Assembly (NCBI GenBank): GCA_965195285.1 | Contig: CBDAFS010000043.1 | Coordinates: forward strand, 1 to 64,000 | DNA length: 64,000 bases | Origin: an uncultured Aminicenantes bacterium | GTDB taxonomy: Bacteria; Acidobacteriota; Aminicenantia; UBA2199 | Direction: 5' to 3' | In this document: positions 1-59,546 of the stretch, piece after piece | How positions within the stretch are numbered: position 1 is the first letter of the stretch | Layout: each line of letters opens with the position of its first letter | The notes under the pieces: model-generated | The model's input: only the letters and a program-made list of their open reading frames with translations | What the model was told of the DNA's origin: nothing | Databases searched by the model: none | Position numbers and translations under genes: made by a program

Positions 1-1084
1 GTAGATTGTCAGGTTCATCAGGGGAAAATAGGGCTCCAAAAATATCGACTCCCGGTGCAACCACATCCACCTGAGACCCGAAATTTGAGAAATCAGCCAG
101 CTGGTCATAGGCATTACTGGCACCAACAGCCAGACAATAATCATCATACTGGGCCGGATAAAGCACTTGACCGGCATCATTTCCGGTTGCAGCAATCAAC
201 ACACAACCCTTTGAAAAAGCATATTGACAGGCATCTTCAAGAATAAAACTATCGGACTCTCCGCCAAAACTCATGTTGATGACCCGGGCTCCCTGATCCG
301 CAGCAAACCGAATGCCACCGGCTATGGCCAGATAACTGCCATCGCCAAGGCTATCAAAGCATTTGATGGGCATGATCATGGATTGCCAGCAAACCCCGGC
401 CACACCAATGGAATTATTGGTTTCTGCCGCGGCAATGGATGCCACCAGGGTACCGTGCCCGTTATCATCATAGGCATCAAAACTGTCTTCAATAAAGTTA
501 TATCCGGGAACCACTTTGGATATTAAATCTTCGTGATGGAGAGCCACCCCGGAATCAATCACGGCAATGACAAGTTCACTGTCTCCGGTGGACCAGTCCC
601 AGCCATCAAGTGCCTTGATATCACTCCCGCTGATCCCAACCAGGTCATCGGTAGGGAAATAAACCTGGCCATAATTGTATAATGCATATTGAAAAACGAA
701 AAAACTATCATTGGGCGGTTCGGAAGCCAGGCGAGCCATATAGTTTAGCGAAGCATCTATAACCAGGGGATTTTGTCTTAAATCCAAAAGCAACCCTTCG
801 GGATCACAGGACGGATGAATATGGCAAATATAATATCCGGTTTGACTGTGAATCCCTATTCCCGTGATTTCCGACGGGTATCTGGCCTGCAGAATCTCGG
901 AGGCCAACCTTTTTCCCCATTCCTGAGTCTTTAACTTCACAATAATCTGATTGGGGACAAAGCGTTGGTTACCGCTACTCCGGATAGGTTCGCCCCCATG
1001 ATAGTAGGCCCATCGGGTCAGAACAGGTGACAGATTTAAGGTCAAAACAAAGCAAAAAAGTAAAAATATGGTTTTTTTAACCAT
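1..1084 (-). CDS. Secreted S8 subtilisin/thermitase-like serine peptidase, 3' end outside window
   Basis: Not in the ORF track because it runs off the edge. Manual translation from ATG 1084: signal peptide MVKKTIFLLFCFVL, prodomain FVPNQIIVKLK, catalytic VIAVIDSGV and DDNGHGTLVAS, VINMSFGG, oxyanion AATGND, FSNFG..VDVVAPG. Confidence 0.9.
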   Translation of the reverse strand, partial: MVKKTIFLLFCFVLTLNLSPVLTRWAYYHGGEPIRSSGNQRFVPNQIIVKLKTQEWGKRLASEILQARYPSEITGIGIHSQTGYYICHIHPSCDPEGLLLDLRQNPLVIDASLNYMARLASEPPNDSFFVFQYALYNYGQVYFPTDDLVGISGSDIKALDGWDWSTGDSELVIAVIDSGVALHHEDLISKVVPGYNFIEDSFDAYDDNGHGTLVASIAAAETNNSIGVAGVCWQSMIMPIKCFDSLGDGSYLAIAGGIRFAADQGARVINMSFGGESDSFILEDACQYAFSKGCVLIAATGNDAGQVLYPAQYDDYCLAVGASNAYDQLADFSNFGSQVDVVAPGVDIFGALFSPDEPDNL

Positions 1085-1093
1085 GAATCTCTC

Positions 1094-1846
1094 CTAAAAC
1101 GAATAAAAAATACTGGCGGAGATCGTCAATTTCGAAAAATAATTGATTTCCAGACCGGCTTCCCAATTCCTGGTAAATTCAAAAACAACGCCGCCCACGA
1201 TCCCCAGAAGATTTTTCTGACGGTGTTTCAATTCAGTCTCCGCTTCAATTTCCGCAATGGTTTCCGATATGGTGAGTGTTCCTTTGATAATATTCAGCTG
1301 AGGCCCCGCATACAGAATAATGGCATCCAGGCCATGATATTTCAATACCAGATCCAGTGTGCCCTGGTAAAACCAGTGCTTGGTCAGTGAAGAACCGGTA
1401 ACAATGTCTAAATTTATTTCTGTCTCCTGCTCGAATCTTTTGAAATACAAAAATTCTCCGCGGGCTGAGATCGAGAAATCACCGGAGGAAAAAAATTCAG
1501 ACATCAGGCTAAGACCAAAAACCATTGAATTATTGCTTTGAGTATCGATCTCCAGGGATAATGGAAGCGAGGTGACCTGAAGGGAATCCTTGAAATGATT
1601 CCAGTTATATCCGGCAATCAAACCCAGCGATAAATAATCGAAAATGTCAACTCTCACTTCAAGCGCCAAAACCATAGAGATCAATGAATTTTCCATATCG
1701 GTATCACTGAACACCACTTTGGCATCCGAATAGGCGGTTCTCAAACCGGTGAAATAAGCAAGGTCATTTTGAGTGCTGTTCTCTTCCAGTGAAAACAGAG
1801 TGATATGAAAGAATAAAATGATCAGTGAAAAAAAAAGTTTTTTCAT
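1094..1846 (-). CDS. Outer-membrane beta-barrel-like protein
   Basis: Signal peptide MKKLFFSLIILFF, alternating beta-strand pattern, C-terminal aromatic FYSF; start moved to ATG 1846. Confidence 0.65.
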   Translation of the reverse strand: MKKLFFSLIILFFHITLFSLEENSTQNDLAYFTGLRTAYSDAKVVFSDTDMENSLISMVLALEVRVDIFDYLSLGLIAGYNWNHFKDSLQVTSLPLSLEIDTQSNNSMVFGLSLMSEFFSSGDFSISARGEFLYFKRFEQETEINLDIVTGSSLTKHWFYQGTLDLVLKYHGLDAIILYAGPQLNIIKGTLTISETIAEIEAETELKHRQKNLLGIVGGVVFEFTRNWEAGLEINYFSKLTISASIFYSF

Positions 1847-1999
1847 CACCACCATCCTGATTTAGAAATATACCGAAAAAAAAGCCAAAAGTCAAAGGAA
1901 AGTTATTTCTCCTGCTTTCTGGCAATGGAAGCTGAACCGGTATTATTACACAGCCGGGTATTTCCAAAAATAATCGAATATATTATAATAAGAAAAGAC

Positions 2000-2887
2000 A
2001 TGGCCAAACAAAAAACCGAAATCTCAATTATTATCCCTTGTTTTAATGAATCCCGAACTATTCTGGAAACCATCAAAAAACTAAATCAGGTATTTTCGAA
2101 ATCCCAAAACGGTTATGAGATCATTGTCATCAATGATGCTTCCACTGACGGCACTCAGGACCAACTGGACAAATTGGATGACCTCCGTGTCAGGGTTATT
2201 TCCAATCGTTTTCAACTGGGATACGGGGCTTCTATCAAAATCGGAATCAAGAATTCCCGGTTCGAATGGATCGGGATTTGTGATGCTGATGGGACCTATC
2301 CCCTAGACCGGTTTCCTGACCTGCTGAAATATGCGAATGATTTTGATATGGTAGTGGGAGAGAGAACCGGAAAAGTAAGAGCCATCCCGTTTTTCAGGCG
2401 ACCGGCCAAATGGTTCCTGAATCGCTTTGCTTCGTACCTGGTTAAACGCAAAATTAAAGACGTCAATTCCGGCATGAGACTATTCAGAAAAGAAATTGCC
2501 GGTAATTACCGGAAGCTTTTTCCGGATGGATTCTCATTTACCACCACCATGACCCTGGCCTTTATCATGGGCAACCATCGAATCAAAAACCTGCCCATCG
2601 ATTACATGAAAAGAAAAGGCAGATCCAAAATCAGGCCCTTTCGGGACACCTACAATTTCATTCTCCTGATACTGAGATTGGCCATGTTGTTCAATCCCCT
2701 GAGGGTATTCATGCCAGCCTTTTTTATGGTGTTCTTCATGACCCTTATTTCACTGGGCCGGGATATTTACAACCTGAACCTAACCGATACCACGGTCATG
2801 CTGTTTGTTTTTTCCATCATCATCCTCATGATCGGCTTGCTGGCAGATTTAATCAATAAAAAAAGTACTGAAAGTTGGGGAAGATAA
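2000..2887 (+). CDS. GT2 polyprenol-phosphate glycosyltransferase (DPM/ArnC-like)
   Basis: IIIPCFNE, INDASTDGT, DADGTY, C-terminal TM helices; likely start MAKQK at 2000. Confidence 0.9.
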   Translation: MAKQKTEISIIIPCFNESRTILETIKKLNQVFSKSQNGYEIIVINDASTDGTQDQLDKLDDLRVRVISNRFQLGYGASIKIGIKNSRFEWIGICDADGTYPLDRFPDLLKYANDFDMVVGERTGKVRAIPFFRRPAKWFLNRFASYLVKRKIKDVNSGMRLFRKEIAGNYRKLFPDGFSFTTTMTLAFIMGNHRIKNLPIDYMKRKGRSKIRPFRDTYNFILLILRLAMLFNPLRVFMPAFFMVFFMTLISLGRDIYNLNLTDTTVMLFVFSIIILMIGLLADLINKKSTESWGR

Positions 2888-4716
2888 ATATTATTGCCAT
2901 AATCGAATTGTTTTTGCTGCTCGGATCGGCCTATGGAATTTCCACTTTTTTTATCAAGCCCAAGAATCAGGGAGACCGGTTATCCCACCTGATTCTGGGT
3001 ATAAGCCTGGGGTTGGGTCTCATCTCCTATTTAACCCTGCTGGCAGCTTCACTGCATCTGCTGAGCACCTGGTTTTTCTGGGGAATCATCCTCATCGGGA
3101 ACATCCTTTTTCTTAAAAACATTCCTTATCTGAAAGAACTGTCCATCGATTGGAAAGCCTCTGTCCTCGGTATAATGCTATCGGTTTTTTTAGGCCTGAA
3201 CCTGTTCTACAGTTTGTTCCCTCCCAGTTTTTATGACTCCCTTTTATACCATCTGGCCATTCCCCAATTTTACCTGCAACAGGGTGGAATCACCGCCTGG
3301 AATTGTAATTTCAACTCCAACCTCCCTCTGAACGGTGAAATGTTATACTTGTTTTCTATGCTGGGCGGAACCATGCTGATTCCCAAACTGCTCTCCCTGT
3401 GGTCAGGAATTGCAATTCTCATCCTGATGTTCCGCTGGTATAAAAATCAGTTTTCGCCCACATTTACCCTGTTACCCTTGATTCTGTTTTATTCGATCCC
3501 CCAGGTCGGGTTTCTCTCCTCCTCGTCAAAAACCGATATGCTGGGGCTGATGTTTCTGTTTTCCGGGTTTTATCTGTTTTTTGAATATCTGGAGATGCCG
3601 GGATCAAAAAACAACCTCTGGTTGACCGGACTTTTTCTGGGAATGTCTGTCGGGACCAAGTATATATTTGCCATTTATGCTGTCGCCTTTATGCTGGCGG
3701 TTTTTTTGTTTACCAAAATCCCATTCAAGAAGAAGATGGTGGTCATTCCCCTGGTTTCAATCATGATATTTCTCTGCCTGCTCCCCTGGTTTATTAAGAA
3801 TACCATTATCAGCGAAAACCCGGTATACCCTTATTTAAATACAGTTTTCAAAAGTGATTTCTGGAGCCCCGAACAAGCTAAAAACTTTTCATCTATACTG
3901 AAAAGAGGAGCGGATCATCAGATCCTGGATTATCTGAAATATCCGATCGAATTGTTTACCCGACCCTATCAATACGGCTTGACAGCGGTCTGGGGAATTC
4001 TTTTTTTGTTTTCCCTGCCATTTTTGTTTTTCACCACCCGGAACACACAAATCCGGGTATTGATCTTTTCCTCTTTGTTTGCTTTTTTACTGTTGATGCA
4101 GTTTGCCAAAGTTCCGCGATATTTTTTAGGTTCACTACTGCTGCTTTCTATCCCTACTGCCCTCGGAATTGAAAAGGTAGTGATTCATATAAGACTGGTC
4201 AAAAAAATATTCATCCCCTTTCTGATCCCGCTACTCCTGCTTCATCTGATACTCCAGTTTGATCTGCAGGAAAAATTTTTTAAGGGTTTTCAATACCTGG
4301 GACTGAAAATCGGGGAAAAATCCGACAACCCCGACCTTGATTATTTGAATCTGATTCCCTATTACCGGGTAGCCAAGTTTATCAATCACTCATTATCACC
4401 AGATCATCGGATTATGATTCTGGGTGAGGACCGCACTTTTTACATTAAAAGACCTTTTCTAGCCTGCTCTTTTGCCGACAAACACCCCTTGATCGGAATG
4501 CTGAAAACTCAAATGGTTCCGGTCCAGATAATAACCCGGATGCATAAACAAAAAATTACCCACCTGATGTATAGTGAAAAGGGACTGAAACGACTGGAGC
4601 GATTATCAAGAATGTATCACCTGTCTGACACCCAATGGAAAAAATTGGGGCATTTATTGAAACACTTAAAACCCATTTACCGGGATCACCGGTACACGGT
4701 ATATCAAATCATCTGA
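2875..4716 (+). CDS. GT-C fold multi-TM glycosyltransferase (ArnT/PMT_2-like)
   Basis: About 13 TM segments, YDSLLYHL early-loop motif, ENPVYPY, overlaps the GT2 gene. Confidence 0.7.
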   Translation: MGKINIIAIIELFLLLGSAYGISTFFIKPKNQGDRLSHLILGISLGLGLISYLTLLAASLHLLSTWFFWGIILIGNILFLKNIPYLKELSIDWKASVLGIMLSVFLGLNLFYSLFPPSFYDSLLYHLAIPQFYLQQGGITAWNCNFNSNLPLNGEMLYLFSMLGGTMLIPKLLSLWSGIAILILMFRWYKNQFSPTFTLLPLILFYSIPQVGFLSSSSKTDMLGLMFLFSGFYLFFEYLEMPGSKNNLWLTGLFLGMSVGTKYIFAIYAVAFMLAVFLFTKIPFKKKMVVIPLVSIMIFLCLLPWFIKNTIISENPVYPYLNTVFKSDFWSPEQAKNFSSILKRGADHQILDYLKYPIELFTRPYQYGLTAVWGILFLFSLPFLFFTTRNTQIRVLIFSSLFAFLLLMQFAKVPRYFLGSLLLLSIPTALGIEKVVIHIRLVKKIFIPFLIPLLLLHLILQFDLQEKFFKGFQYLGLKIGEKSDNPDLDYLNLIPYYRVAKFINHSLSPDHRIMILGEDRTFYIKRPFLACSFADKHPLIGMLKTQMVPVQIITRMHKQKITHLMYSEKGLKRLERLSRMYHLSDTQWKKLGHLLKHLKPIYRDHRYTVYQII

Positions 4717-49261: not shown

Positions 49262-49334
49262 GCGCCCGTAGCTCAATGGATAGAGCGGTAGACTTCGAAT
49301 CTGCGCGTTGGGGGTTCGACTCCCTCCGGGCGTA
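49262..49334 (+). tRNA. tRNA-Arg(TCG), CCA not encoded
   Basis: Acceptor GCGCCCG/CGGGCGT, D-arm GCTC-AATGGATA-GAGC, anticodon arm GTAGA-CTTCGAA-TCTGC, T-arm with GGTTCGACTCC. Confidence 0.96.
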
Positions 49335-49338
49335 TTTG
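49289..49338 (+). repeat. attL core, 50-bp direct repeat
   Basis: TAGACTTCGAATCTGCGCGTTGGGGGTTCGACTCCCTCCGGGCGTATTTG identical to 59497-59546. Confidence 0.95.
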
Positions 49339-49386
49339 AATTATCAAGGGTATCCAGCCCTACACTATAAATTAATCTATCCGGTA

Positions 49387-49406
49387 TGTGTCAAATATGT
49401 GCCAAA
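49387..49406 (+). promoter_or_regulatory. Putative integrase arm-type site pair
   Basis: TGTGTCAAA and TGTGCCAAA 11 bp apart; same pairs at 59385/59396, 62078/62089 and 62157/62168. Confidence 0.65.
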
Positions 49407-49678
49407 CATCCCCTTATTTGGCGTTAGAACACCCCGCTAACATTCAATCTCTTTTGCCATGATATCTGATATAGATTGAAAATTATCGGGCCTCAGAATC
49501 GATTTTTCTGACTTCTAATTAATGACCGATTTGTGCCATGATTCCTATCCATCGATTAATACACAAATTGTATTCAAATCAAGTCACCTGATATATCAAG
49601 CCACTTTATTTCATTCCCTATAAGCTTGATATTTCTTACATTTTATAATAACATATAAAAATCACATGGGGAGTTTTT

Positions 49679-50752
49679 ATGGAAAAGAAAAATGATAAAC
49701 CAAAAAAGAAGCAACCAAAATCTCAAAAGGAAAGTAAACAAAATGAATTAACCATTATAGGACCGCTTGATAAGCAATTGGAATTATTAAAGGATAATTG
49801 GATTCCTATTACTCAAATGGAAAATAGCTTAAAACATTTGACAAAGGGCATTGAAATCGACACATCAAGCTGGACAAACTTACTTGGGAACATGAACAAT
49901 GAATTAACCCAGCCTTTTATTGAACTGCAGAAAGACATAAACATTCTGCAGGAGGAAATATTAAAAACACCAGAAAGAGAGCAACTTGAAAACTATCAAG
50001 AGAAAATTACTGAATTAGAAAAATATAAAAGGCTCAGACATCTTTATAACAGTGTTAATTCAAAAGCTCGAGAAAAATTATCAAAATCTCAATCTTTTGT
50101 TGGCAAGTTTGAATCTGACAAGCCTTTAGAATCGGTAGTTGTTTCAATTGATATAAGGCGTTCAACAGAACTTATGCTTAAGGCAAAGACCCCAAATCAC
50201 TTTGCTCAATTCATAACAGACTTATGCAAAAAGCTAACTGATATTATAATAGAAAATTATGGTGTAATTGACAAATTCACAGGAGATGGTATTTTAGCCT
50301 TTTTCCCTAATTTCTATTCAGGTAAGGATTCATATTATTATGCATTAAAATCTGCAAACGATTGTCATTATTTTTTTCAAAAACACTATGAAGAATCAAG
50401 AACATGTTTTACAACTATCTTAAAAGACATTGGTCTTGGAATAGGAATTGACAGTGGTTTAGTCAACCTCGCAAAAATAAATAATGAACTGACTGTTGTT
50501 GGTACACCAGTCGTTTATGCTTGCCGTTTATCGGGAACTGATCCTGGAATCACACTTGTAAATCAATCTGCAATGGAAACAATCTCCAATTTATATAGCA
50601 AGCATATAAGAATTGAAGACTCAGAAATACCAATAAAACATGAGGGCAGAGTATTAGGGTATTTAATTGATTTAAACTTCAAAGCAATTGAACCTGAAAT
50701 TCCTGATTGGAAAAAATTCCCTGATGATAAAACTGAAGACAAAAAAAAGTAA
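49679..50752 (+). CDS. Class III adenylate/guanylate cyclase domain protein with N-terminal coiled coil
   Basis: SIDIRRST, IDKFTGDG, GIGIDSG, TVVGTPVVYACRL. Confidence 0.88.
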   Translation: MEKKNDKPKKKQPKSQKESKQNELTIIGPLDKQLELLKDNWIPITQMENSLKHLTKGIEIDTSSWTNLLGNMNNELTQPFIELQKDINILQEEILKTPEREQLENYQEKITELEKYKRLRHLYNSVNSKAREKLSKSQSFVGKFESDKPLESVVVSIDIRRSTELMLKAKTPNHFAQFITDLCKKLTDIIIENYGVIDKFTGDGILAFFPNFYSGKDSYYYALKSANDCHYFFQKHYEESRTCFTTILKDIGLGIGIDSGLVNLAKINNELTVVGTPVVYACRLSGTDPGITLVNQSAMETISNLYSKHIRIEDSEIPIKHEGRVLGYLIDLNFKAIEPEIPDWKKFPDDKTEDKKK

Positions 50753-50763
50753 TACTTCAAGCG

Positions 50764-51870
50764 TCAATCTGAACTTTTTAATGCCTTATTTTTAAAACCT
50801 AAATTCATTGGAATGAGCTTTTTTACTGCCTTCTGCATCTGGATGAAATTTGAATGCGTATAAACAGCAGTTGTAGAAAGATTGGCATGACCAAGAAGGG
50901 ATGAAACAGTTTGGACATCTGCCCCACTATGGAGGAGGTTGGAGGCAAAACTGTGGCGCAATGTATACATGACTCCATCTATTTTTAGTGCTTTCTTCAA
51001 TTTTAACCACTGTAGCCTGAAGGCCTCTGAGCGCCGCTGTGTAGTGTTTATGATAAAGACACTATCTCTGGGCAAACTCATTAAAAGTTGATAGAGAATT
51101 TTGTGTATAGGTACTAACCGTTCTTTTCCCGTTTTACTCTTTCGGATTATCAATGAATCCTCTTTGATATCATCCCAGCGCAGGTTGAATATCTCCCCGG
51201 CCCTCATTCCGGTATAAGCGGCAATCATGAGGAAGGGGAAGAAATAGAGTTGTGAGGGAGATGTGGCATTTTCAGATATGCCCCGGGCATACTCCAGGAT
51301 TTCCTGGATCTGGTCTGGTGTATAGTATTCACTGCGCCGGGCTTCCTGGTAGTATTTCACATTAGATACAGGATTGCGGCCATCATAATCACCATCCTTT
51401 ATCAGCAGATTGATGGCTGATTTCAGCAGGGCCAGATACCGGTTTACAGTGGTTCCACTGATGCTCCTGCTTCTCTTCAGATACCCTTTCAGCTCTTCAA
51501 TTCTGGAAGGCTTGATGTCTTTCACCAGTATTCCAGCTCCAAAAAACTTAAGGATGATATCACGTTTGGCCCGGTCGTTTTGAAATGACTTTGAGTCTTT
51601 ATTGATTTCTGAATACTTCAGCCAGCGGTTAATGGCATCCTCCAAGGAAATATTTCCACTCAGGCCATAAGCTTCCTTCAAAATATCATCATAGACCTTC
51701 TGGGCCAATTGTTGGGCCATGGCCTTGTTTCCGGTCCTGAGAGAGGGGCGGTATCGTATTCCCTTGATTGAAAAATCCACATACCAGCTCTTCCTCCGTT
51801 TGAATAACGTGTAAGACATTGTATTCATAATATTCTTTTTTTTTTGATTTTCAACTTCACCCCGGCTCAC
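50764..51870 (-). CDS. Tyrosine integrase
   Basis: N-terminal arm-binding WYVDF..RYR.SLRT, TVNRYLA, TGMRAGE, KTGK, YTLRHS, LGH, TAVY. Confidence 0.95.
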   Translation of the reverse strand: MSRGEVENQKKKNIMNTMSYTLFKRRKSWYVDFSIKGIRYRPSLRTGNKAMAQQLAQKVYDDILKEAYGLSGNISLEDAINRWLKYSEINKDSKSFQNDRAKRDIILKFFGAGILVKDIKPSRIEELKGYLKRSRSISGTTVNRYLALLKSAINLLIKDGDYDGRNPVSNVKYYQEARRSEYYTPDQIQEILEYARGISENATSPSQLYFFPFLMIAAYTGMRAGEIFNLRWDDIKEDSLIIRKSKTGKERLVPIHKILYQLLMSLPRDSVFIINTTQRRSEAFRLQWLKLKKALKIDGVMYTLRHSFASNLLHSGADVQTVSSLLGHANLSTTAVYTHSNFIQMQKAVKKLIPMNLGFKNKALKSSD

Positions 51871-52124
51871 TCATTCAATTTCATAATGCTGATGTGTTTA
51901 TCAATAATACGTTTGGTAAGAATTCGCTTTTTTATTTTTTGTTCAGCCTCAATCATTCTCAGTCTACCCGGTCTCGAATTCTCTTCCATGAAAGTCTCCA
52001 CATCAGAATGTCTGTATTTAACCCGCTTCCCGATCCGGACAGTTCGTATGGGCAAAAGGGCAAGCGTGGGGCGGCTGACTTTCAGCACTTTGCATACCTC
52101 CTTTGGTTCTAGGATTTCAATCAT
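51867..52124 (-). CDS. Excisionase-like HTH protein
   Basis: LEPKEVCKVLKVSRPTL, VRIGKRVKY; ATGA overlap with integrase. Confidence 0.75.
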   Translation of the reverse strand: MIEILEPKEVCKVLKVSRPTLALLPIRTVRIGKRVKYRHSDVETFMEENSRPGRLRMIEAEQKIKKRILTKRIIDKHISIMKLNE

Positions 52125-52343
52125 TTATTCAATAACTATATCCTTCCGATTCGGGTCTCTCCACTGGTCATACATACGCCCATGTGTTTCTGTTTCTCCA
52201 GCCCATATAAAATCAGGGTGTTCTTTTTGGTATTTTTCACGCTCTGATTGAAGAGAAATACTCACATAACGAATAACAATTTTCTTTTTCTTCACTCCAA
52301 CAATTGATTCCAACTGTTTGAGCCGTCTGTGTAGTTCTCTCAT
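52125..52343 (-). CDS. Hypothetical protein
   Basis: Coupled to both neighbours; LHRRLKQLE N-terminus typical of satellite/phage small ORFs. Confidence 0.65.
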   Translation of the reverse strand: MRELHRRLKQLESIVGVKKKKIVIRYVSISLQSEREKYQKEHPDFIWAGETETHGRMYDQWRDPNRKDIVIE

Positions 52344-52732
52344 GGATGTTTTTTTTGGTCTTTTGATGATTGCTCCAGGGATTCAATCCGTTGAGTTAAA
52401 TTTTCAAGTTCAATGAATCGGGCAGCATGTTCAAGAATTAGGCTTGATGCTCTTAATCTTACATTGTCATTTTTGGCCTTCAACAGGTCGGTCAGGGTTG
52501 CTGAAGCTTCATCTGCCTGTCTAATCAATCTCAACCGGGCGGCATCCAGAACCTGCTTTGACTGGTTCAGAAATTCTTCGCGAAATTCTGGTTCAGCCAT
52601 CCACTTATAAAATGTGGAGCGATTTATTCCAGCCTTTTTACAACCCTCTGTTATGGTCCTAGCACTCAAGATTGCATAAATGGCATTTTTCTGGTTCGTT
52701 GAAATTTGTGTATTATTGTTGCTCACGCTCAC
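52340..52732 (-). CDS. HTH protein, small-terminase-like
   Basis: QKNAIYAIL..TITEGCKKAGINRSTFYKW..EPEF, then VRLRASSLILE helices. Confidence 0.6.
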   Translation of the reverse strand: MSVSNNNTQISTNQKNAIYAILSARTITEGCKKAGINRSTFYKWMAEPEFREEFLNQSKQVLDAARLRLIRQADEASATLTDLLKAKNDNVRLRASSLILEHAARFIELENLTQRIESLEQSSKDQKKHP

Positions 52733-53412
52733 CGTCCTTCCTCCTCATTAAATTGATTTGCTTTTGTGCTTTTTGATAAATAGTTAAAATCATTCTCAAC
52801 TATAATCTTTTGTAATCTTCCTTTTAGAGTTGATGTATCAATATTTTCTGGAATAATATTATGTATCTCTTTATCATCTTTTATATTATGATATATATTA
52901 TCTTGCTCCTTTATAGGAATAGTATTGTTATCTGTGTCCCTATCTTCAATTTCAACGGTGTCCCGCTGGCTCTTTTTTTTTGCCATTTCTCTGCTATATA
53001 TTTGAGTTCTTACGGTGTCCCTTTTTTCAACATTCTCGGTATCCCTTATTAAAACGGGAGTATATTCACCATAATCAAGTATTGTTATGATTGTCGTAAT
53101 CGTAAATCCCTTCTTAGGAAATTTTTTATAGCTCACCTTATTTTCATTTTCCAATTTATTAAGAAACCTCCTCACGCGCTTTATATTCCATTCCCAGATT
53201 CCTGAAAGATGCTTAAGGCTATAAGCGAGTTGGGCTCTTTGAAGTGGAATTTCTATGCCCTTTATTTTTACAAATCCATCTTTATAATTTGCTACTATTA
53301 ATAAAAACAACCAAGCTCGGGATTCATCAAATGGTTTTCTCATAAACCTAGTGTCATTCAATAATGTTTTTCTTTTTAATGGGAGGAAACCTCTATTAAT
53401 GTCAAGTATCAT
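52729..53412 (-). CDS. Phage-type replication initiator-like protein
   Basis: AWLFLLIVANY, LQRAQL, LSGIWEW..RVRRFLNKLE, TIITILDY, repeat-containing linker. Confidence 0.7.
   Translation of the reverse strand: MILDINRGFLPLKRKTLLNDTRFMRKPFDESRAWLFLLIVANYKDGFVKIKGIEIPLQRAQLAYSLKHLSGIWEWNIKRVRRFLNKLENENKVSYKKFPKKGFTITTIITILDYGEYTPVLIRDTENVEKRDTVRTQIYSREMAKKKSQRDTVEIEDRDTDNNTIPIKEQDNIYHNIKDDKEIHNIIPENIDTSTLKGRLQKIIVENDFNYLSKSTKANQFNEEEGR
52932..53045. repeat. Four 9-bp iterons inside the rep gene, putative origin
   Basis: CTGTGTCCC 52932, CGGTGTCCC 52956, CGGTGTCCC 53013, CGGTATCCC 53037; spacing 24/57/24; AT-rich tract adjacent. Confidence 0.7.
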
Positions 53413-53421
53413 TTTTTACTA

Positions 53422-53631
53422 TTAATCACCATCTAAAAATTGCCATTTAAGTTGTACTTTTTTTGGTTGAGTTGATTTTAACCACTTCTCTATTAAATCA
53501 CTGTCGAAAAGGATACTGCCTCCTACTTTTGAGTATGGGATATTATTTCCCTTTATTAATCTGTCTATCGTGGGAACACTTTTACCGAGAATGGCGGCAA
53601 CTTCTTTCTTACTAAGCATTTTTTTTGACAT
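53422..53631 (-). CDS. Excisionase/AlpA-like HTH_17 protein
   Basis: MLSKKEVAAILGKSVPTIDRL..IPYSKVGGSILFD..IEKWL; SD GGAGGT before MSKK. Confidence 0.85.
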   Translation of the reverse strand: MSKKMLSKKEVAAILGKSVPTIDRLIKGNNIPYSKVGGSILFDSDLIEKWLKSTQPKKVQLKWQFLDGD

Positions 53632-53689
53632 GACACCTCCTTTTATTACAATCAATTACCCGAATTGGATAATATGGGTTGAAATTTTT

Positions 53690-54166
53690 TTACTTTTGAA
53701 TCTCATCAATCCTCTTCAACAAAAAATCATTGATTTTGCTCAAATTAATCACCAAGCTCACAGGGTATTTATCCAGCTGTGTTTTAATCTCACTTACTTT
53801 TTCAAAATTCTCTCTATACCACTGTAACCCTACACTGTCTCTATAGCTTTTATGGTCTATGTTTATTATCCAATTTTTGCCAGTTTCAATATATTCCTTT
53901 ATCTTTTTTCTATTGAATTCAAACAGTTCATTCTGGCAGAATTCGTATTCCGAATATAGACCATGGCCAAGCAAATGCATTACTTCAATCTGGATTAAAT
54001 TGATAAAATCAAACAGATGTTTTTTCTTTCGCCTTCCCAAGGATTTTGATTCAATCGGGACGATAAATCGTCTCAAAATCCAATTGCTTACAGTTCTGAC
54101 TGTAATACCAGTAATTTCCTCAACTTGTTGGACAGTAAATGTCCTTTTTAAAATTTTATTATTCAA
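53690..54166 (-). CDS. MerR-type HTH regulator
   Basis: FTVQQVEEITGITVRTVSNW..RFIVP..HLFDF; TTG start. Confidence 0.7.
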   Translation of the reverse strand: MNNKILKRTFTVQQVEEITGITVRTVSNWILRRFIVPIESKSLGRRKKKHLFDFINLIQIEVMHLLGHGLYSEYEFCQNELFEFNRKKIKEYIETGKNWIINIDHKSYRDSVGLQWYRENFEKVSEIKTQLDKYPVSLVINLSKINDFLLKRIDEIQK

Positions 54167-54437
54167 TTTGTTTCACAGCCGATTATCCGATCTAATTAAT
54201 CTCATTCTATAATTATAATATAATTCCTTTCAAATGTCTACCAAATTGTTCAACTCAACTAATTTTAATCAAAAAAATATCAACACAGATATACGTTAAC
54301 ACCAGGATTGAGATTTTTGAACACTTTTTTCAATCTAAGCATAAAACAAATTTTATTGATATTTCTTTTTTATTTTAATACAATATATATCGATATTCAT
54401 CAATAGTTATCACAAACTAGATTGGGGAGAAGATTGT

Positions 54438-54641
54438 ATGGTAAATGAAATTAATAATGTAGGCTTTTCGCCAAATGTCCTACAAGTTTTAGAGAATTTT
54501 TTTGCTGCGCTGCGTGCTGATGATAAAATCGACGAACAATCGATTTCTAGACTTGAGAAGCTTTTTCAAAAAGGATGCATCCCGAAAGCAGAGGAAATCA
54601 ATTCGACCTTGTTCAATCCACCCAAAGATGGTGAAAGATGA
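54438..54641 (+). CDS. Small hypothetical protein coupled to the ATPase
   Basis: SD GGGGAG, 67 aa, ATGA overlap with the next gene. Confidence 0.75.
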   Translation: MVNEINNVGFSPNVLQVLENFFAALRADDKIDEQSISRLEKLFQKGCIPKAEEINSTLFNPPKDGER

Positions 54642-57109
54642 TTCGTATCAACTCTATTCATATTGAGGAATTTCGTGGTATCCGAAATCTTGACCTTGAC
54701 CTAGATGCAAAGAATTTCGGGATATGCGGTCCGAATGGAACTGGCAAAAGTGGTATTGTTGATGCTATCGAATTTTGTCTGACAGGAGATGTGACACGAC
54801 TATCAGGACAGGGAACCACAGGTCTCAGTGTAAAAAATCATGCACCCCATGTTGAACAACGTAATTCTCCTGAGAAAGCAAATGTGACAATCAGTGCAAA
54901 AATCCCATCAATAAATAAGGCAGTTCAGATTCATCGATCAGTCAAGAATCCGCGAAACATTAAAATTTTACCGGACGATGCAGATGTGGTGAGTATTATT
55001 GAAGAGTTACAATCACACCCGGAATTCGCTCTTTCACGTCGTGAGATTGTCAAGTATATAATTACCCCACCCGGCAAACGTTCCGAGGATGTTCAGACTC
55101 TTCTGCGACTTGAATATCTTGAAAAGCTCCGGAAATCCCTCACTACCTTTAACAACAAATGCAAAATCAGAATGGAGGAAGCTGAACGTAATGAAAAGCG
55201 GGCAAGAAACGAACTGAGAATCACCCTGGAAACAGACAAGCTAGATAAAGAAACAATCCTTAAAAAGGTTAATGAGAATCGAAAAATTCTTGACCTTGAA
55301 ATCCTTACGGACCTTACAAAAAACACCTCGTTTAAGGAAGGATTGGTTGCTCAAAAAAAAGAAGAAAAGAAACCTACCATAAGAAAAACCATAGCACTTG
55401 CTGATCTTTCATCACTTAAATCCACAATCGAGAAAAAAGCACCTGATGTTCTTATAAAAAATCAGCAAAAAGCGAAAGCCACCCTTGAAACACTTAGAGA
55501 CGATGAGAACGCCCTTATATTGGCGAAACGCTTTCATTTTATCAAGACTGGCTGTGACTTTATAACCGAAAATGCTTGCCCCCTTTGTGACAAGGAATGG
55601 GATGCAGATGAGCTTCGTGAATATCTAAACAAGAAACTTTTAACTGCAAAAAAAACCAAGCAGCTTTTAGAAAACATTCGTGGAAATATTAATACTGTTC
55701 TCAATTCATTATCAGAGCGAGTTCAGGCAATCGAAACAACCATAAAATATTGTAATAAACTCAAGCCACAAATCGAGACAACTGAACTGGATGCCTATCT
55801 TAGAAAGCTAAAAAGCACAGAGATAGCCTTGAAAGATTTCCTTGAAGATTACAATCAATTTGAACAAGCCTTGGAAGCCGTCACATTCACGTGGTGGTCT
55901 CCAACCAAAGAACAACAAACTAGCGTCAACAAATGTCATAAAGCTGTAAAAGCTCTGCCGGACATATCAGCTGAAGACGATGCTCGTGACAAACTGACAG
56001 TCGCACAGGAACGTTACGACAGGTTTTATGATTTTTTTATAACGGCCAAAAAGGAGAAGTCACAGAGCTCCATCGCCCAGAGGATACTGGAACATTACCA
56101 TAAAAGTAATGAGACAGTTCTTGAAGGTATTTACAATAATGTTGCAAAGGACTTCTCTACATTTTACAGTACTATAAATCGCCAGGATGAAGAGAAATTC
56201 GTTGGCAAGCTTACATCAGCGCCCGCCAAGTTAAGCTTTGATGTTGATTTCTACGAGTACGGACTTTTCCCACCAGGTGCCTATCATAGTGAAGGTCATC
56301 AGGACGGCATGGGATTATGTCTTTATCTTGCGCTGATGAAACACACTCTTGGCAATAAATTCACCTTTGCAGTACTTGATGATGTGCTCATGTCCATCGA
56401 CTCTGGTCATCGACGCGAGGTCTGCCGACTGTTAAAATCAGAATTTCCTAACACACAATTTATCATAACAACTCACGATAGAGTGTGGCTCCAATATATG
56501 AAAACCGAAGGTTTGGTTAACAACAGTAAATCATTCGGAGGGTGGCATGTTAAAACGGGTCCGCGAGTTTGGGACGACCATGATATCTGGACAGAAATCC
56601 AAAACGAACTCGGCAAAGATGATGTTGCAAAGGCTGCCGGGCTATTGCGTCGCTTCCTCGAATATACTTCTATAATCCTCGCTGATAATCTCCGGGCGCC
56701 TATTGAGTTCAAAGGAGATGGTAACTATGGCCTCGGAGACCTCATGCCTCATGTATTGAAAGTTTGGCGGAAAAGACTTGAGGATGGTGAAAAGTCTGCC
56801 ATCTTTTGGAAACAGGATAAGGAAAGAAAAATTCTTGCCGAAAAGCGTGTCATAGCAAAGGAACTTATTGCAAAAACGAATGCTGAGCAATGGGCTATAA
56901 ATCCATCCATTCATTATAACGAATGGGCAAATTTCCAACGCCACGAGTTTCAAGAAGTTGTAGATGTATTCAAACAGCTTCTTGAAAATCTCCAATGCAA
57001 AAACAAAGAGTGCAACTCCTACATTTATGTACTACCTCAGAAAGGAAAAGCAGAGGAGATGCGATGCAATTGTGGTGCAACTAATATCAATCTCAAAACT
57101 GATAAATAA
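54638..57109 (+). CDS. Rad50/SMC-like ABC ATPase with zinc hook, HEPN-like (RloC/PrrC-like) C-terminus and zinc ribbon
   Basis: EFRGI, GPNGTGKS, CPLC in coiled coil, HSEGH, VLDDVLMSID, ITTHD, LLRRFLE..INPSIH, CxxxxC..CxC. Confidence 0.85.
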   Translation: MIRINSIHIEEFRGIRNLDLDLDAKNFGICGPNGTGKSGIVDAIEFCLTGDVTRLSGQGTTGLSVKNHAPHVEQRNSPEKANVTISAKIPSINKAVQIHRSVKNPRNIKILPDDADVVSIIEELQSHPEFALSRREIVKYIITPPGKRSEDVQTLLRLEYLEKLRKSLTTFNNKCKIRMEEAERNEKRARNELRITLETDKLDKETILKKVNENRKILDLEILTDLTKNTSFKEGLVAQKKEEKKPTIRKTIALADLSSLKSTIEKKAPDVLIKNQQKAKATLETLRDDENALILAKRFHFIKTGCDFITENACPLCDKEWDADELREYLNKKLLTAKKTKQLLENIRGNINTVLNSLSERVQAIETTIKYCNKLKPQIETTELDAYLRKLKSTEIALKDFLEDYNQFEQALEAVTFTWWSPTKEQQTSVNKCHKAVKALPDISAEDDARDKLTVAQERYDRFYDFFITAKKEKSQSSIAQRILEHYHKSNETVLEGIYNNVAKDFSTFYSTINRQDEEKFVGKLTSAPAKLSFDVDFYEYGLFPPGAYHSEGHQDGMGLCLYLALMKHTLGNKFTFAVLDDVLMSIDSGHRREVCRLLKSEFPNTQFIITTHDRVWLQYMKTEGLVNNSKSFGGWHVKTGPRVWDDHDIWTEIQNELGKDDVAKAAGLLRRFLEYTSIILADNLRAPIEFKGDGNYGLGDLMPHVLKVWRKRLEDGEKSAIFWKQDKERKILAEKRVIAKELIAKTNAEQWAINPSIHYNEWANFQRHEFQEVVDVFKQLLENLQCKNKECNSYIYVLPQKGKAEEMRCNCGATNINLKTDK

Positions 57110-57154
57110 TAAAAAAATCATATCAATATAATGAGAACAAATCAAGCTGAAATT

Positions 57155-57415
57155 TTATTTATCAATCTTTTCATTTGCGAGTTGGTAATCTGATATCTTT
57201 ATAAATTTTATATTTTTCCCAGAATCCAATAAAGAGGCGTAATCTCTGATAATCATCCTTTCGAATGTGACCCGATATTTTGACATCTTCTTTGGTAAAA
57301 CATCATATCGATAATAATTCCAATTTGGAATAACAGAATAACATTGGCTCAATCTCTTTATTAAATTTTGAGCTTCCATATATTCGTTAAGTATCCTCTG
57401 AATACTTGGAATCAA
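57155..57415 (-). CDS. Hypothetical protein or remnant
   Basis: 86-aa TTG-start ORF immediately after the DUF4145 stop. Confidence 0.35.
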   Translation of the reverse strand: MIPSIQRILNEYMEAQNLIKRLSQCYSVIPNWNYYRYDVLPKKMSKYRVTFERMIIRDYASLLDSGKNIKFIKISDYQLANEKIDK

Positions 57416-57416
57416 C

Positions 57417-58043
57417 TCAACTTTCAGTTTTTTTTAATCCTTCAAGTCTACCCAACAATAGTTCATATTGATAAACTGCTTTTAAAATTTCTTTCGTCAA
57501 ATCCAATGACATCTCAATCTCTTCTTGTCCCACCTTCGAAAATGTCCTCGCCTCAACATGAGCTGCATCATTACCCAATAGTCTTAAATTATTCATAGCC
57601 TTAAAGAGGTCCTCCGGAAGTACAATTTTTGTTCTCAAATCTGCGATTCTGTCAATCAATCTTTCCCCTGTCGCAGCCTTATCTTTACATATTTCCTCAA
57701 GCGTTCTTCGTATTAACATTCCAGCTCCGATATAACACTTTTCTGCATGGCATATTATTGCTTCGCTGAATGTTTTCCATATCAGTGGAGGAATATTATT
57801 TTTATCAAACTCTATTTTTTGAGAGGGATACGTAAAAATCCCCCCTGCTTTGTTGATATAGAATACAATACCATGGCATTCATCATTAGGACATCTTCGC
57901 ATACCAAACCAAGTTTTATTAACATTCTCCATTAAGGATTCTTGACAATTTTCAAAAGTACCAATTGCCCCACAATATGGACATCTGATTTTTACAACTG
58001 GACCAGAGCCACCATGACTCAAGTCATCAACTTTAACATACAT
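57417..58043 (-). CDS. DUF4145 (HEPN) protein with N-terminal zinc ribbon
   Basis: CPYC..CPNDEC, EAIIC, RRTLEEIC, LRLLGNDAAH; SD GGAGGAG before ATG 58043. Confidence 0.88.
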   Translation of the reverse strand: MYVKVDDLSHGGSGPVVKIRCPYCGAIGTFENCQESLMENVNKTWFGMRRCPNDECHGIVFYINKAGGIFTYPSQKIEFDKNNIPPLIWKTFSEAIICHAEKCYIGAGMLIRRTLEEICKDKAATGERLIDRIADLRTKIVLPEDLFKAMNNLRLLGNDAAHVEARTFSKVGQEEIEMSLDLTKEILKAVYQYELLLGRLEGLKKTES

Positions 58044-58094
58044 TTCTCCTCCCTGTATAATCCCATAATATAAGAAACATACAATCACGTCAAT

Positions 58095-58120
58095 TTTGTG
58101 TTAAATATTTTGGTTAATTT
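58095..58120 (+). repeat. Degenerate internal copy of the element right-end arm
   Basis: TTTGTGTTAAATATTTTGGTTAATTT, 25/26 identical to 62166-62191. Confidence 0.7.
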
Positions 58121-58220
58121 ATTTTATTTTTTAGAATAATAGTATAAGCAATATATTAAATATTTCTAATAAATATGATACTATTAACATCAATCTTGAA
58201 TTTATTGGGGGTGATTTTTC

Positions 58221-59369
58221 ATGGCCTTTAATTTGAAAACAAAAAAATCAAAAAATCCTTATAAACAAATTTGGAAATACCTTCACTCTTATAAGGACCA
58301 AAATTTTAGTTTAAAAAAAATTAAATCATTTTCCCCAAAGGCTAATAAAGATACTTTAAAAAAAAAGGCGAAACAAATAGGATATTGTATTCGACAATCA
58401 GAAGAATATTTCTGCGCCTCAGAAGAAGTAAGTTTAGCTACTCGTCCATTACTCCTCTACTATGGTGTAATGTGTTTATCATATGCTTTAATCGTATTAA
58501 AAAATGATGACAACCATTCTATTGATTATCTTCGTCAAATCAAGAGTAATAAGCATCATGGATTACATATAAAAGGTGATTTTCAATTAATTAGTAAAAC
58601 AAGAAAATGGAAAACACTTTTTAGTGAACTTAAATCAGAAATTGCTAAGAAAAGTGGAAAGCCAATTGGAACATTTTCACTTTTTTATAAATCAATCGTT
58701 CCGGCTTCTTCAATGGTAAAAAGAGAGCTTCAGAACCTTGGAAGAGTTACAGTATTAAAAGGGTACATTATTAAAGAACTGCCTCAAATCCCAAAAATGG
58801 ACCTTCTGAATAATTCTGCATCCTGTTTAAGTTTATTCTCAAATATTCCAGATTTATATGATAATCTTGTTGAAGAAAATATATATTCAAATTTATGTAA
58901 AGGTAGCGCGAAAATAAGAATTCAGAGTCAATTTAAAAAACATTTTGAAGTATCTTCAGATATATTCTTAGATGATGTGACAGAACAGGAAAAAAAACAA
59001 TTTATAAAAAACTATAATTTTTTAAAGATATATTATGATATGAAAACCAACGTACATTATCAAATTAATAAATCATTCCCAAGCCAAGAGGAAATAGAGG
59101 TAGAATTGCCCTATTTTATTTTTGATATAAATGAACAGATGTATCATATTATTAATCCAGATAAATTTGAACCTGAATTGATTTCCTTCTATAGAATCCT
59201 GTTTTGTTTGGGAACACTCTCGAGATATTACCCAGATATTTGGATGAAAATTATCGATGAAAAAATATTGACGAACGAGTTTGTCAACACTTTATTAAAT
59301 ATCATACATACTAAATATCCACAATTAATTTTAGAGCAGATGAATCTTATTAGTTATAAATTTACATAA
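58221..59369 (+). CDS. YaaC-like protein
   Basis: IRQSEEYF, RPLLLYYG, HHGL, LGTLSRYYPDIW. Confidence 0.75.
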   Translation: MAFNLKTKKSKNPYKQIWKYLHSYKDQNFSLKKIKSFSPKANKDTLKKKAKQIGYCIRQSEEYFCASEEVSLATRPLLLYYGVMCLSYALIVLKNDDNHSIDYLRQIKSNKHHGLHIKGDFQLISKTRKWKTLFSELKSEIAKKSGKPIGTFSLFYKSIVPASSMVKRELQNLGRVTVLKGYIIKELPQIPKMDLLNNSASCLSLFSNIPDLYDNLVEENIYSNLCKGSAKIRIQSQFKKHFEVSSDIFLDDVTEQEKKQFIKNYNFLKIYYDMKTNVHYQINKSFPSQEEIEVELPYFIFDINEQMYHIINPDKFEPELISFYRILFCLGTLSRYYPDIWMKIIDEKILTNEFVNTLLNIIHTKYPQLILEQMNLISYKFT

Positions 59370-59383
59370 TTTCTCGAAGTCAT

Positions 59384-59504
59384 TTGTGCCACGTTTGTGT
59401 CAAATTTTTTGGTTATATTTTAATTTATTTTCAATTTGAGTGACCCGTAAGCTTGATTATACAAGGCTATACGGGAGTTTTGGGGGATATGCAATATAGA
59501 CTTC
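59384..59504 (+). repeat. Element right-end arm, copy 1 (121 bp)
   Basis: 107/121 identical and ungapped versus 62156-62276 (manual count). Confidence 0.93.
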
Positions 59505-59546
59505 GAATCTGCGCGTTGGGGGTTCGACTCCCTCCGGGCGTATTTG
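59497..59546 (+). repeat. attR core (3' part of tRNA-Arg)
   Basis: Identical to 49289-49338. Confidence 0.95.

Follow-up and report, generated by a model that had tools for sequence, protein, structure and literature searches.

What is the role of a Rad50-like ATPase that carries a nuclease-like domain at its own C-terminus and whose gene overlaps the gene for a 67-residue protein? This question is raised by a gene pair from an uncultured Aminicenantes bacterium of the phylum Acidobacteriota (GenBank assembly GCA_965195285.1). The pair lies within the first 64,000 nucleotides of the forward strand of contig CBDAFS010000043.1, and we refer to this whole stretch as the window. The larger gene encodes a Rad50/SbcC-like ATP-binding cassette (ABC) ATPase, followed by a helical domain that resembles HEPN domains and then by a zinc ribbon (Table 1). 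The original prediction, made from the DNA alone, was that the pair is a defense system in which a DNA-end-sensing RNase has its own small regulator, and that it matches neither of two known systems, RloC and Lamassu, exactly. Our analysis supports the view that the pair is a conserved, self-contained module, and we lean slightly toward its being an abortive-infection module: a Rad50-like ATPase, dimerized by its zinc hook, would sense aberrant DNA and, via a neck that is clamped by the small subunit, would release a fused RloC-like RNase.

Conservation of the gene pair

A direct reading of the sequence confirms that the two genes are coupled by an ATGA (positions 54638-54641), in which the stop codon of the small open reading frame (ORF) overlaps the start codon of the large one. 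At all five loci from species-representative genomes, an ORF of 65-72 amino acids lies directly upstream of the large gene, and its product is 45-58% identical to the small protein of the window. We also took 80 metagenome loci (with the large protein 39-70% identical to ours) and left out nine of them that had no upstream sequence or no N-terminus. At each of the 71 testable metagenome loci, a small ORF ends at the start of the large gene. The overlap is of 4 nucleotides at 62 of these 71 loci and at three of the five genome loci. All 71 small ORFs belong to one family after iteration with a hidden Markov model (HMM), which captured 31 of them and then 71 of 71, and conservation at the protein level reaches down to ~15% identity. 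Overall, 76 of the 76 loci that could be assessed have the small ORF, which answers the earlier call for a check of its co-occurrence.

The same genome encodes a divergent second pair (L007, at G000:C20:30902-35779), with ORFs at 1305-1514 (69 amino acids) and at 1450-3921 (~800 amino acids, SMC-like). The large protein of this second pair is 25% identical to the first over the ATPase. Its C-terminus matches our C-terminal HMM (2.9e-13) and has the R-x3-E, N-x3-H-x-N, and CxxC...CxC motifs. Its 69-residue companion is recognized by the HMM of the small proteins (7e-8). Because this paralogous pair has both parts, the two-gene design predates either branch.

No third gene is conserved with the pair. 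We clustered 352 neighboring ORFs from 78 loci, and the largest cluster, a C5 DNA methylase, was found at just six loci, three of which are near-identical. Furthermore, no Pfam family was present in more than two of the 120 neighbors that were scanned (from 220 non-redundant ORFs of at least 160 amino acids).

The family of the large protein

A word-indexed search identified 866 relatives of the large protein. The best 120 of these 866 are 58-70% identical to it, and nearly all of them have 820-832 amino acids (three outliers have 755, 768, and 920). Database names of the relatives are generic ("AAA family ATPase", RecF, SbcC, or SMC), and the organism labels among the few named relatives are Euryarchaeota, Thermodesulfovibrionales, Deltaproteobacteria, and Chloroflexi, with one archaeal record. 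A metagenome scan confirmed at least 553 of at least 595 stretches as relatives. We also compared the C-terminal 205 residues to 1.84 billion cluster representatives and obtained 648 proteins at E ≤ 0.001, which represent clusters at 50% identity. Among the 150 matches listed of these 648, the aligned region is mostly at about residues 610-820 of proteins of 810-850 amino acids; the shorter entries look like fragments from the ends of contigs.

Within the phylum, the C-terminal domain was found in 8 of 401 sampled genomes, and in none of the 11 other genomes of the same family. The in-phylum matches are 37-41% identical to the window protein, and identity reaches 70% among metagenome relatives outside of the phylum. 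The closer relatives outside of the phylum, together with the patchy distribution, point to horizontal transfer.

To describe the conservation of the motifs, we used a census of 215 full-length relatives and an alignment of 45 diverse sequences (down to 30% identity). In the census, Walker A and HSEGHQ are present in all 215 proteins, CPxC in 214, an hhDD-type Walker B in 205, the pattern R-x3-E...N-x3-H-x-N in 198, and the zinc ribbon in 211. In the 45 diverse sequences, the invariant or nearly invariant positions of the ATPase are Walker A, C314, P315, C317, HSEGHQD, D581, D582, and H613; in the C-terminal part they are R671, E675, W752, N755, H759, N761, W763, and the four terminal cysteines. 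This conservation is far above chance.

Neither the C-terminal domain nor the small partner is covered by a model in PADLOC v2, Pfam, or NCBIfam. Full-text literature searches did not return a description of this architecture, in a coverage that excluded supplementary files and the ABC-ATPase classification by Krishnan et al. 2020, which may hold the family.

The ATPase and its zinc hook

The large protein matches SMC_N (3.2e-20) and AAA_23 (5.8e-14) from Pfam. When the family profile was compared to the PDB, the heads of archaeal Rad50 were at the top (1.7e-14), followed by SMC, PtuA, and RecN. In a model of the full-length protein (predicted local distance difference test, or pLDDT, 85.9; predicted template modeling score, or pTM, 0.57), the ATPase head is split by an antiparallel coiled coil. 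One helix (159-197) runs outward and another (445-513) runs back, and the CPLC motif is at the apex, in a loop between helices 299-307 and 323-374. Given the profile match to Rad50 heads and the invariant hook, the proposal of a Rad50-like ATPase with a zinc hook holds. Indeed, all of the motifs that the original prediction named are present in the 823-residue ORF, including LLRRFLE (residues 669-675) and AINPSIH (residues 753-759) in the C-terminal part.

The C-terminal domain

We modeled the C-terminal ~200 residues with confidence from an alignment of 58 rows (pLDDT 89, pTM 0.81). In this model, a β-hairpin is followed by a bundle of long helices at 663-685, 699-723, 727-747, and 768-784 and then by a three-stranded zinc ribbon, and H759 lies on a short helical segment. 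For comparison, HEPN domains are up-down bundles of four helices with ~100-120 residues, and they may contain inserts. The near-invariant E675 is in the first long helix of the domain, where it corresponds to the conserved upstream acidic residue of HEPN domains.

Comparisons of the model to known structures repeatedly returned HEPN proteins. In an exhaustive VIA structure search, the best Z score was 6.2, and six of the best 50 rows have HEPN in their titles (2hsb, 4nqf, 3o10, 1wol, 9bj5, and 7ae2). Two others of the best rows, 5yep and 3jyy, are termed HEPN in the literature. In a second structure comparison, 2q00 reached a Z score of 6.8 (root-mean-square deviation, or rmsd, 3.0 with 111 residues aligned) and entries for the HepT toxin reached 5.2. 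The HEPN entries that recurred among the best matches include 2hsb (Z 5.9, rmsd 3.2, 114 aligned), 4nqf (5.7), 3o10 (5.3), and 7bxo (5.2). By the tool's own guide, values below ~13 are common for unrelated helical bundles. So, of the earlier claim that the C-terminus is HEPN-like, what stands is that HEPN entries recur among the best structure matches. The model leans toward a HEPN fold without being conclusive, as the best Z score is within the noise range for helical bundles.

Other searches with the C-terminal domain returned little. A sequence search against solved structures with the C-terminal 200 residues had no match, whether with a single sequence or with a profile. Pfam gave only sub-threshold hits to IBR and FAM221 over the cysteine pairs, and PADLOC gave no families at E ≤ 1. 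In the ESM Atlas, the C-terminal part matched only clusters of "hypothetical protein"; in one row (0.83), 13% of the members carry AAA_13, and we treat this as no more than a lead.

The canonical HEPN motif (Rx4-6H) has an arginine, followed by a polar residue, that we could not find here. As the original prediction had pointed out, there is no evident arginine before N-x3-H: in the window protein, the residue directly before N755 is I754. HEPN families that keep the histidine and lack the motif arginine, but have other conserved basic residues, have been described (PMC3710099). In RloC and PrrC, the mutationally essential arginine and glutamate are in an upstream R-x3-E (PMC2610378). Because of this precedent, R671, which with E675 forms an R-x3-E, is a natural candidate to stand in for the absent motif arginine.

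Comparison with RloC

RloC, an anticodon nuclease that excises the wobble nucleotide, is represented by AAA_13 in Pfam and by the PDC-S06 models in PADLOC. As a reference RloC, we used a protein from a genome of the same phylum (L008). It has an AAA_13 match of 88.8 bits, a CPFC hook, R-x3-E, and later His-His, and one source names its relatives "wobble nucleotide-excising tRNase". Our family and RloC share the same arrangement: a single chain of ~800 residues with an ABC head, a coiled coil with a CxxC hook, a second lobe, and a C-terminal domain, in this order. (RloC proteins range in size from 658 to 897 amino acids; PMC2610378.) Both have an hhDD-type Walker B, and both have R-x3-E and then a later histidine in the C-terminal domain, much as the catalytic triad of RloC is Arg-X3-Glu-X36-52-His (PMC2610378).

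An alignment of the full-length family to the RloC family by hhalign had a probability of 95.3% (E = 2.4e-8). The confident stretch, from 540-678 in our family and 533-691 in RloC, includes the signature, Walker B, the H-loop, the β-hairpin linker, and the R-x3-E helix, all in register, and in this helix the C-terminus does resemble the anticodon-nuclease region of RloC, as had been proposed. When just the region after the H-loop was aligned to RloC, the score over 48 columns was 23.8, as compared to 13.4 ± 2.6 for column shuffles (1 of 200 shuffles scored as high) and 16.1 for the reversed alignment. A greedy alignment of low confidence places H759 on the first histidine of the "YHH" of RloC, and the global mode of hhalign gave nothing useful for the family against RloC. 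Our reading of these alignments is that the C-terminal domain probably shares its ancestry with the HEPN nuclease of RloC and PrrC, at a minimum as far as the first helix, and that the family is not RloC.

Two further features separate the family from RloC. The C4 zinc ribbon is at the terminus of our proteins, while the C-terminal tail of L008 has no cysteine. And our family has a constant partner gene of 55-70 codons, while no such ORF was found at the L008 locus (a single RloC locus); indeed, RloC works alone when it is expressed in E. coli (PMC2610378). For RloC, an internal nuclease switch that comprises a zinc hook and a DNA-break-responsive ATPase has been suggested (PMC3458546).

The small partner

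The small protein has no matches to families in Pfam, NCBIfam, or PADLOC (LmuC included; PADLOC at E ≤ 0.1), and in the ESM Atlas it matched only unnamed clusters of 64-70 amino acids. We did not find longer proteins that carry its domain (such as a nuclease fusion) at E ≤ 0.01, which is a weak negative by the tool's own account. The alignment of the small proteins has three amphipathic segments and often an acidic tail, and Leu39 and Ala57 are among its conserved residues.

We predicted the structure of the complex using the alignments of both proteins. The scores were 0.67, 0.68, and 0.67, and the best control scored 0.01. Of 80 solved complexes, 58 attained this level, as did 2 of 110 mismatched pairs. 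The runs had at least 91% of their contacts in common, and the pLDDT of the partner was at least 75. The predicted interface involves residues 156-175, 476-498, and 569-572 of the ATPase (the last segment is in the ATPase lobe) and residues 10-59 of the partner, and it falls at the ends of the coiled-coil helices 159-197 and 445-513, or in other words at the head-proximal neck. At the neck, L155, L156, and R165 show little or no variation among the 45 diverse sequences. The modeling thus supports the binding of the small protein to the head-proximal coiled coil of the ATPase. The head-proximal coiled coil is the binding place of kleisins and of the C-terminal helix-loop-helix of Mre11. The prediction reported no contacts with residues 645-823, although the residues that it does not name are uncertain, so this is not proof of absence. 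The idea of a small regulator can be made more precise: the partner is predicted to clamp the large protein at the coiled-coil neck and not at the C-terminal domain.

Comparison with Lamassu, SbcCD, and other ABC-HEPN fusions

Like that of Lamassu, the ATPase of our pair is SbcC-like and has one CxxC and a Walker B of the hhhhDD type, and a small gene lies directly before the ATPase gene. In Lamassu, the gene for the "long" form of LmuC immediately precedes the gene for LmuB; this LmuC is similar to the domain at the C-terminus of SbcD that binds SbcC, and its predicted place is at the heads (PMC12663957). In contrast to Lamassu, neither LmuA, which is a separate effector with a conserved C-terminal domain, nor another conserved third gene was found among the neighbors of the 78 loci; here, the putative effector is part of the ATPase chain. 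Also, the small protein is far smaller than LmuC. The best PADLOC model for the large protein is LmuB (PDLC03859, 1.1e-24, residues 1-622). However, this model also matches the true RloC (L008), at 5.1e-22, so the match means "SbcC/Rad50-like" and not "Lamassu". With an unspecific LmuB match and no LmuA found near the module, we rejected an assignment to Lamassu.

The similarity to Mre11-Rad50 (SbcCD) is that Rad50 heads are the best profile match among solved structures, that a zinc hook is common to both, and that the partner is predicted to lie at the base of the coiled coil, as SbcD does on SbcC (PMC12663957). Our family differs in the added HEPN-like domain and zinc ribbon, in a much shorter coiled coil, and in its mobile and patchy distribution. 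Furthermore, we did not find the Mre11/SbcD phosphoesterase among the conserved neighbors (78 loci clustered, and 120 neighbors scanned with Pfam). The sole calcineurin-like phosphoesterase domain that we identified among the neighbors is part of a PnkP protein at one metagenome locus.

There are other ABC ATPases that are fused to HEPN domains. PrrC lacks the coiled coil and the hook, and a type I restriction-modification enzyme to which it is linked keeps it silent. In the groups of PrrC, APECO1_4465, and ERFG_01251, a HEPN-type RNase lies C-terminal to an ABC ATPase, and the genes are often in mobile islands or beside restriction-modification genes (Anantharaman et al. 2013, PMC3710099). 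The APECO1_4465 and ERFG_01251 groups are likened to our family by description only.

A possible mechanism and its alternatives

We build here on the anatomy of the large protein and its resemblance to Rad50 and RloC, on the fact that the pair is conserved and in a mobile context, and also on the predicted interface at the neck. By analogy with RloC and Lamassu, we infer a DNA trigger, an RNase activity with its substrate, and a role in defense. In the resting state, the ATPase, the zinc hook, and the partner would keep the two C-terminal domains of a dimer apart or occluded. Aberrant DNA at the heads, such as free ends or replication intermediates of phages or plasmids, would act together with ATP turnover to alter the geometry of the neck and the heads. 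The two HEPN-like domains could then assemble a composite active site from R671, E675, N755, and H759. This site would cut tRNA or other RNA, and translation would stop. The zinc ribbon may help to hold the RNA or to dimerize.

Several results weigh against this proposal. Foldseek returned zero matches for the C-terminal model at E ≤ 0.001, and all of the HEPN matches from the other structure comparisons (Z ≤ 6.8) are within the range of unrelated helical bundles. The canonical R-N-x3-H is present in 0 of 215 relatives. By hhalign, the C-terminus alone aligns to RloC with a probability of just 5% (P = 0.005-0.008). The spacing between the glutamate and the histidine is 83 residues here versus 36-52 in RloC, because two long helices intervene. 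AAA_13 does not hit the large protein of the window at E ≤ 0.1, and on four relatives it scores 24.4-29.7 bits, in the ATPase part only, where the cut-off is 36 bits. The passing score of the complex prediction may echo a memory of Mre11-Rad50 neck complexes, as such complexes have been solved, although the likeness itself is still informative. As for the genomic context, DNA methylases (C5, N6, Eco57I, and MmeI) recur among the neighbors in raw counts that have no background comparison, and the linkage to PnkP, an RNA-repair enzyme, comes from a single locus. Of these points, the AAA_13 scores and the triad spacing, along with the partner gene and the lack of LmuA, also bear out the statement that the pair matches neither RloC nor Lamassu exactly.

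If the C-terminus is not a nuclease, then the pair could be a defense or plasmid-control system in which a HEPN-like bundle and the zinc ribbon bind nucleic acids or play a regulatory role, and in which either DNA binding driven by ATP or an effector from another locus would produce the effect. The absence of the canonical motif and the weak structure matches fit this idea, and HEPN domains without the motif have been described as likely non-catalytic binders (PMC3710099). We nevertheless consider it unlikely. R671, E675, N755, H759, and N761 are near-invariant among proteins that are 30-45% identical, which is typical of an active site; the pattern R-x3-E...H fits the mutationally-proven triad of RloC (PMC2610378); in some HEPN families another basic residue replaces the motif arginine (PMC3710099); and a conserved third gene that could be the source of an effector was not found. 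It is less plausible still that the pair is a toxin-antitoxin system, in which the 67-residue protein would be a labile antitoxin and would mask the RNase at the C-terminus directly, with the ATPase as secondary. The small upstream gene is translationally coupled to the putative toxin, and HEPN toxins often have cognate antitoxins (PMC3710099), but a conserved ATPase of 620 residues with an invariant hook is hardly an accessory. We also gave this idea less weight because the predicted interface is on the neck and at residues 569-572, with no reported contact with residues 645-823 (which is not proof).

Two other explanations seem very improbable to us. One is that the pair is a housekeeping complex for DNA repair or chromosome maintenance, akin to SbcCD or Mre11-Rad50, that has lost its nuclease subunit. 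This would explain why Rad50 heads are the closest among solved structures and why relatives are named RecF, SbcC, or SMC. It would not explain why the pair is in an integrase-bearing tRNA island, why it was found in so few of the sampled genomes of the phylum and in none of the 11 others of the same family, or why relatives of up to 70% identity are in unrelated phyla (and in an archaeal record), and the Mre11/SbcD phosphoesterase was not found among the conserved neighbors. The other, to which we give similarly little credence, is that the large protein is a divergent ortholog of RloC, a single-protein anticodon nuclease, and that the upstream ORF is incidental. The order of the domains is the same, the size is similar, and the C-terminal lobe of the ATPase and the R-x3-E helix align to RloC. 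Against this, the small ORF is at every testable locus and is seen again in the paralogous pair, the AAA_13 scores do not reach the cut-off, the L008 locus lacks such an ORF, and the zinc ribbon and the longer spacing within the triad are extra.

If RNase-based abortive infection is the correct explanation, then a common and compact two-gene defense would be added to the catalog, and it would be a simple system for the study of signaling through a coiled-coil neck. The family is large and is spread over many phyla, including the archaeal record, under generic names only. It lies between two studied systems, in that it has the fused ATPase-RNase design of RloC and, next to the ATPase, the small subunit of Lamassu and SbcCD. 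Because of this intermediate position, it could show how Rad50-type sensors became wired to different effectors.

A more specific idea, which we put forward tentatively and which is probably not correct in full, is that the family is a third, unnamed lineage of immune sensors derived from SbcCD/Mre11-Rad50, beside Lamassu and RloC. In this lineage, the nuclease subunit would have shrunk to a free peptide of ~60 amino acids, a remnant of the C-terminal clamp of SbcD/Mre11, that gates the neck, and the killing activity would have moved in cis, as a HEPN RNase with a relocated arginine and a zinc ribbon. In that case, the small protein would act as a switch between the sensing of DNA ends and the dimerization of the RNase, and the pair would be a minimal, tractable model for how a Rad50-type signal passes from the heads via the neck to an effector.

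The mobile island and neighboring genes

The pair lies inside an island of ~10.2 kb (positions 49289-59546 of the window) that is bounded by a direct repeat from a tRNA-Arg gene (Table 1). The GC content of the island is below that of its flanks, and it also contains small genes that are HTH-like (helix-turn-helix) or AlpA-like.

Table 1. Coordinates, within the window, of the gene pair, its sequence features, and the other features of the island
Feature	Position	Strand	Remarks
Perfect 50-nt direct repeat, left copy	49289..49338	+	3' part of tRNA-Arg(TCG); left boundary of the island
PycC-like cyclase protein, 357 aa	49679..50752	+	Flanked by the tRNA and the integrase-like ORF; PADLOC models for Pycsar cyclases hit its C-terminal part (PycC, 4.5e-14)
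Putative island integrase, tyrosine-type	50764..51870	-	Call from reading the translation only
Promoter-like TTGATA-17-TACAAT	54356..54384	+	~54 nt 5' of the small ORF; consensus match only, 10/12 positions
Shine-Dalgarno-like GGGGAG	54424..54429	+	8 nt 5' of the ATG of the small ORF; direct sequence reading
Small partner gene, 67 aa	54438..54641	+	Probably helical; without known family
Large gene, 823 aa	54638..57109	+	Rad50/SbcC-like ABC ATPase, C-terminal helical (HEPN-like) domain, zinc ribbon
Walker A, GPNGTGKS	54728..54751	+	Residues 31-38; 215/215 relatives
Start of outgoing coiled-coil helix	55103..55162	+	Residues 156-175; first half of the predicted docking site of the small protein
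Zinc hook, CPLC	55577..55588	+	Residues 314-317, apex of the coiled coil; CPxC in 214/215 relatives
End of returning coiled-coil helix	56063..56131	+	Residues 476-498; second half of the predicted docking site
Motifs of the C-terminal ATPase lobe	56279..56479	+	ABC signature AYHSEGHQD, 548-556; Walker B and D-loop AVLDDVLMSID, 578-588; H-loop TTHD, 611-614
C-terminal helical domain, HEPN-like	56570..56992	+	Residues ~645-785; conserved polar R671, E675, N755, H759, N761
C-terminal zinc ribbon	56993..57106	+	C787-x4-C792 ... C810-x-C812; three short strands; 211/215 relatives
ORF, 86 aa	57155..57415	-	Familyless; directly after the DUF4145 gene
Zinc-ribbon and DUF4145 protein, 223 aa	57417..58088	-	PD-T7-4-like
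YaaC-like protein, 382 aa	58221..59369	+	
50-nt direct repeat, right copy	59497..59546	+	Right boundary of the ~10.2-kb island

Upstream of the small gene, promoter-like sites are somewhat frequent: there are 15 in the region versus 9.5 ± 3.1 in shuffles. The PycC-like protein of the island has no Pfam match above the cut-off, and an adjoining gene for a Pycsar effector is not obvious.

Elsewhere, the six loci with a C5 cytosine DNA methylase near the module are L051, L052, L054, L031, L043, and L060. At the first three of these, the methylase is followed by ORFs that resemble, by appearance, a Vsr-type endonuclease and a restriction enzyme. This suggests that the module is sometimes linked to restriction-modification systems. 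At another metagenome locus (L035), a full-length gene for PnkP (972-3596, + strand; PNKP_ligase, 2.6e-166) is directly 5' of the small gene and on the same strand. Bacterial PnkP is a kinase-phosphatase-ligase that repairs RNA, and some bacteria with RloC also encode it (PMC2610378). The divergent second pair is preceded by an ORF of 154 amino acids (814-1278) that has weak matches to GIY-YIG_2 (6e-4) and to PDC-M57B from PADLOC (5e-5).

Within the island of the window, three genes are downstream of the pair and convergent with it, including one for a protein with DUF4145, which is a HEPN family (PMC3710099). These three genes (57155-59369) may form another defense unit in the island.

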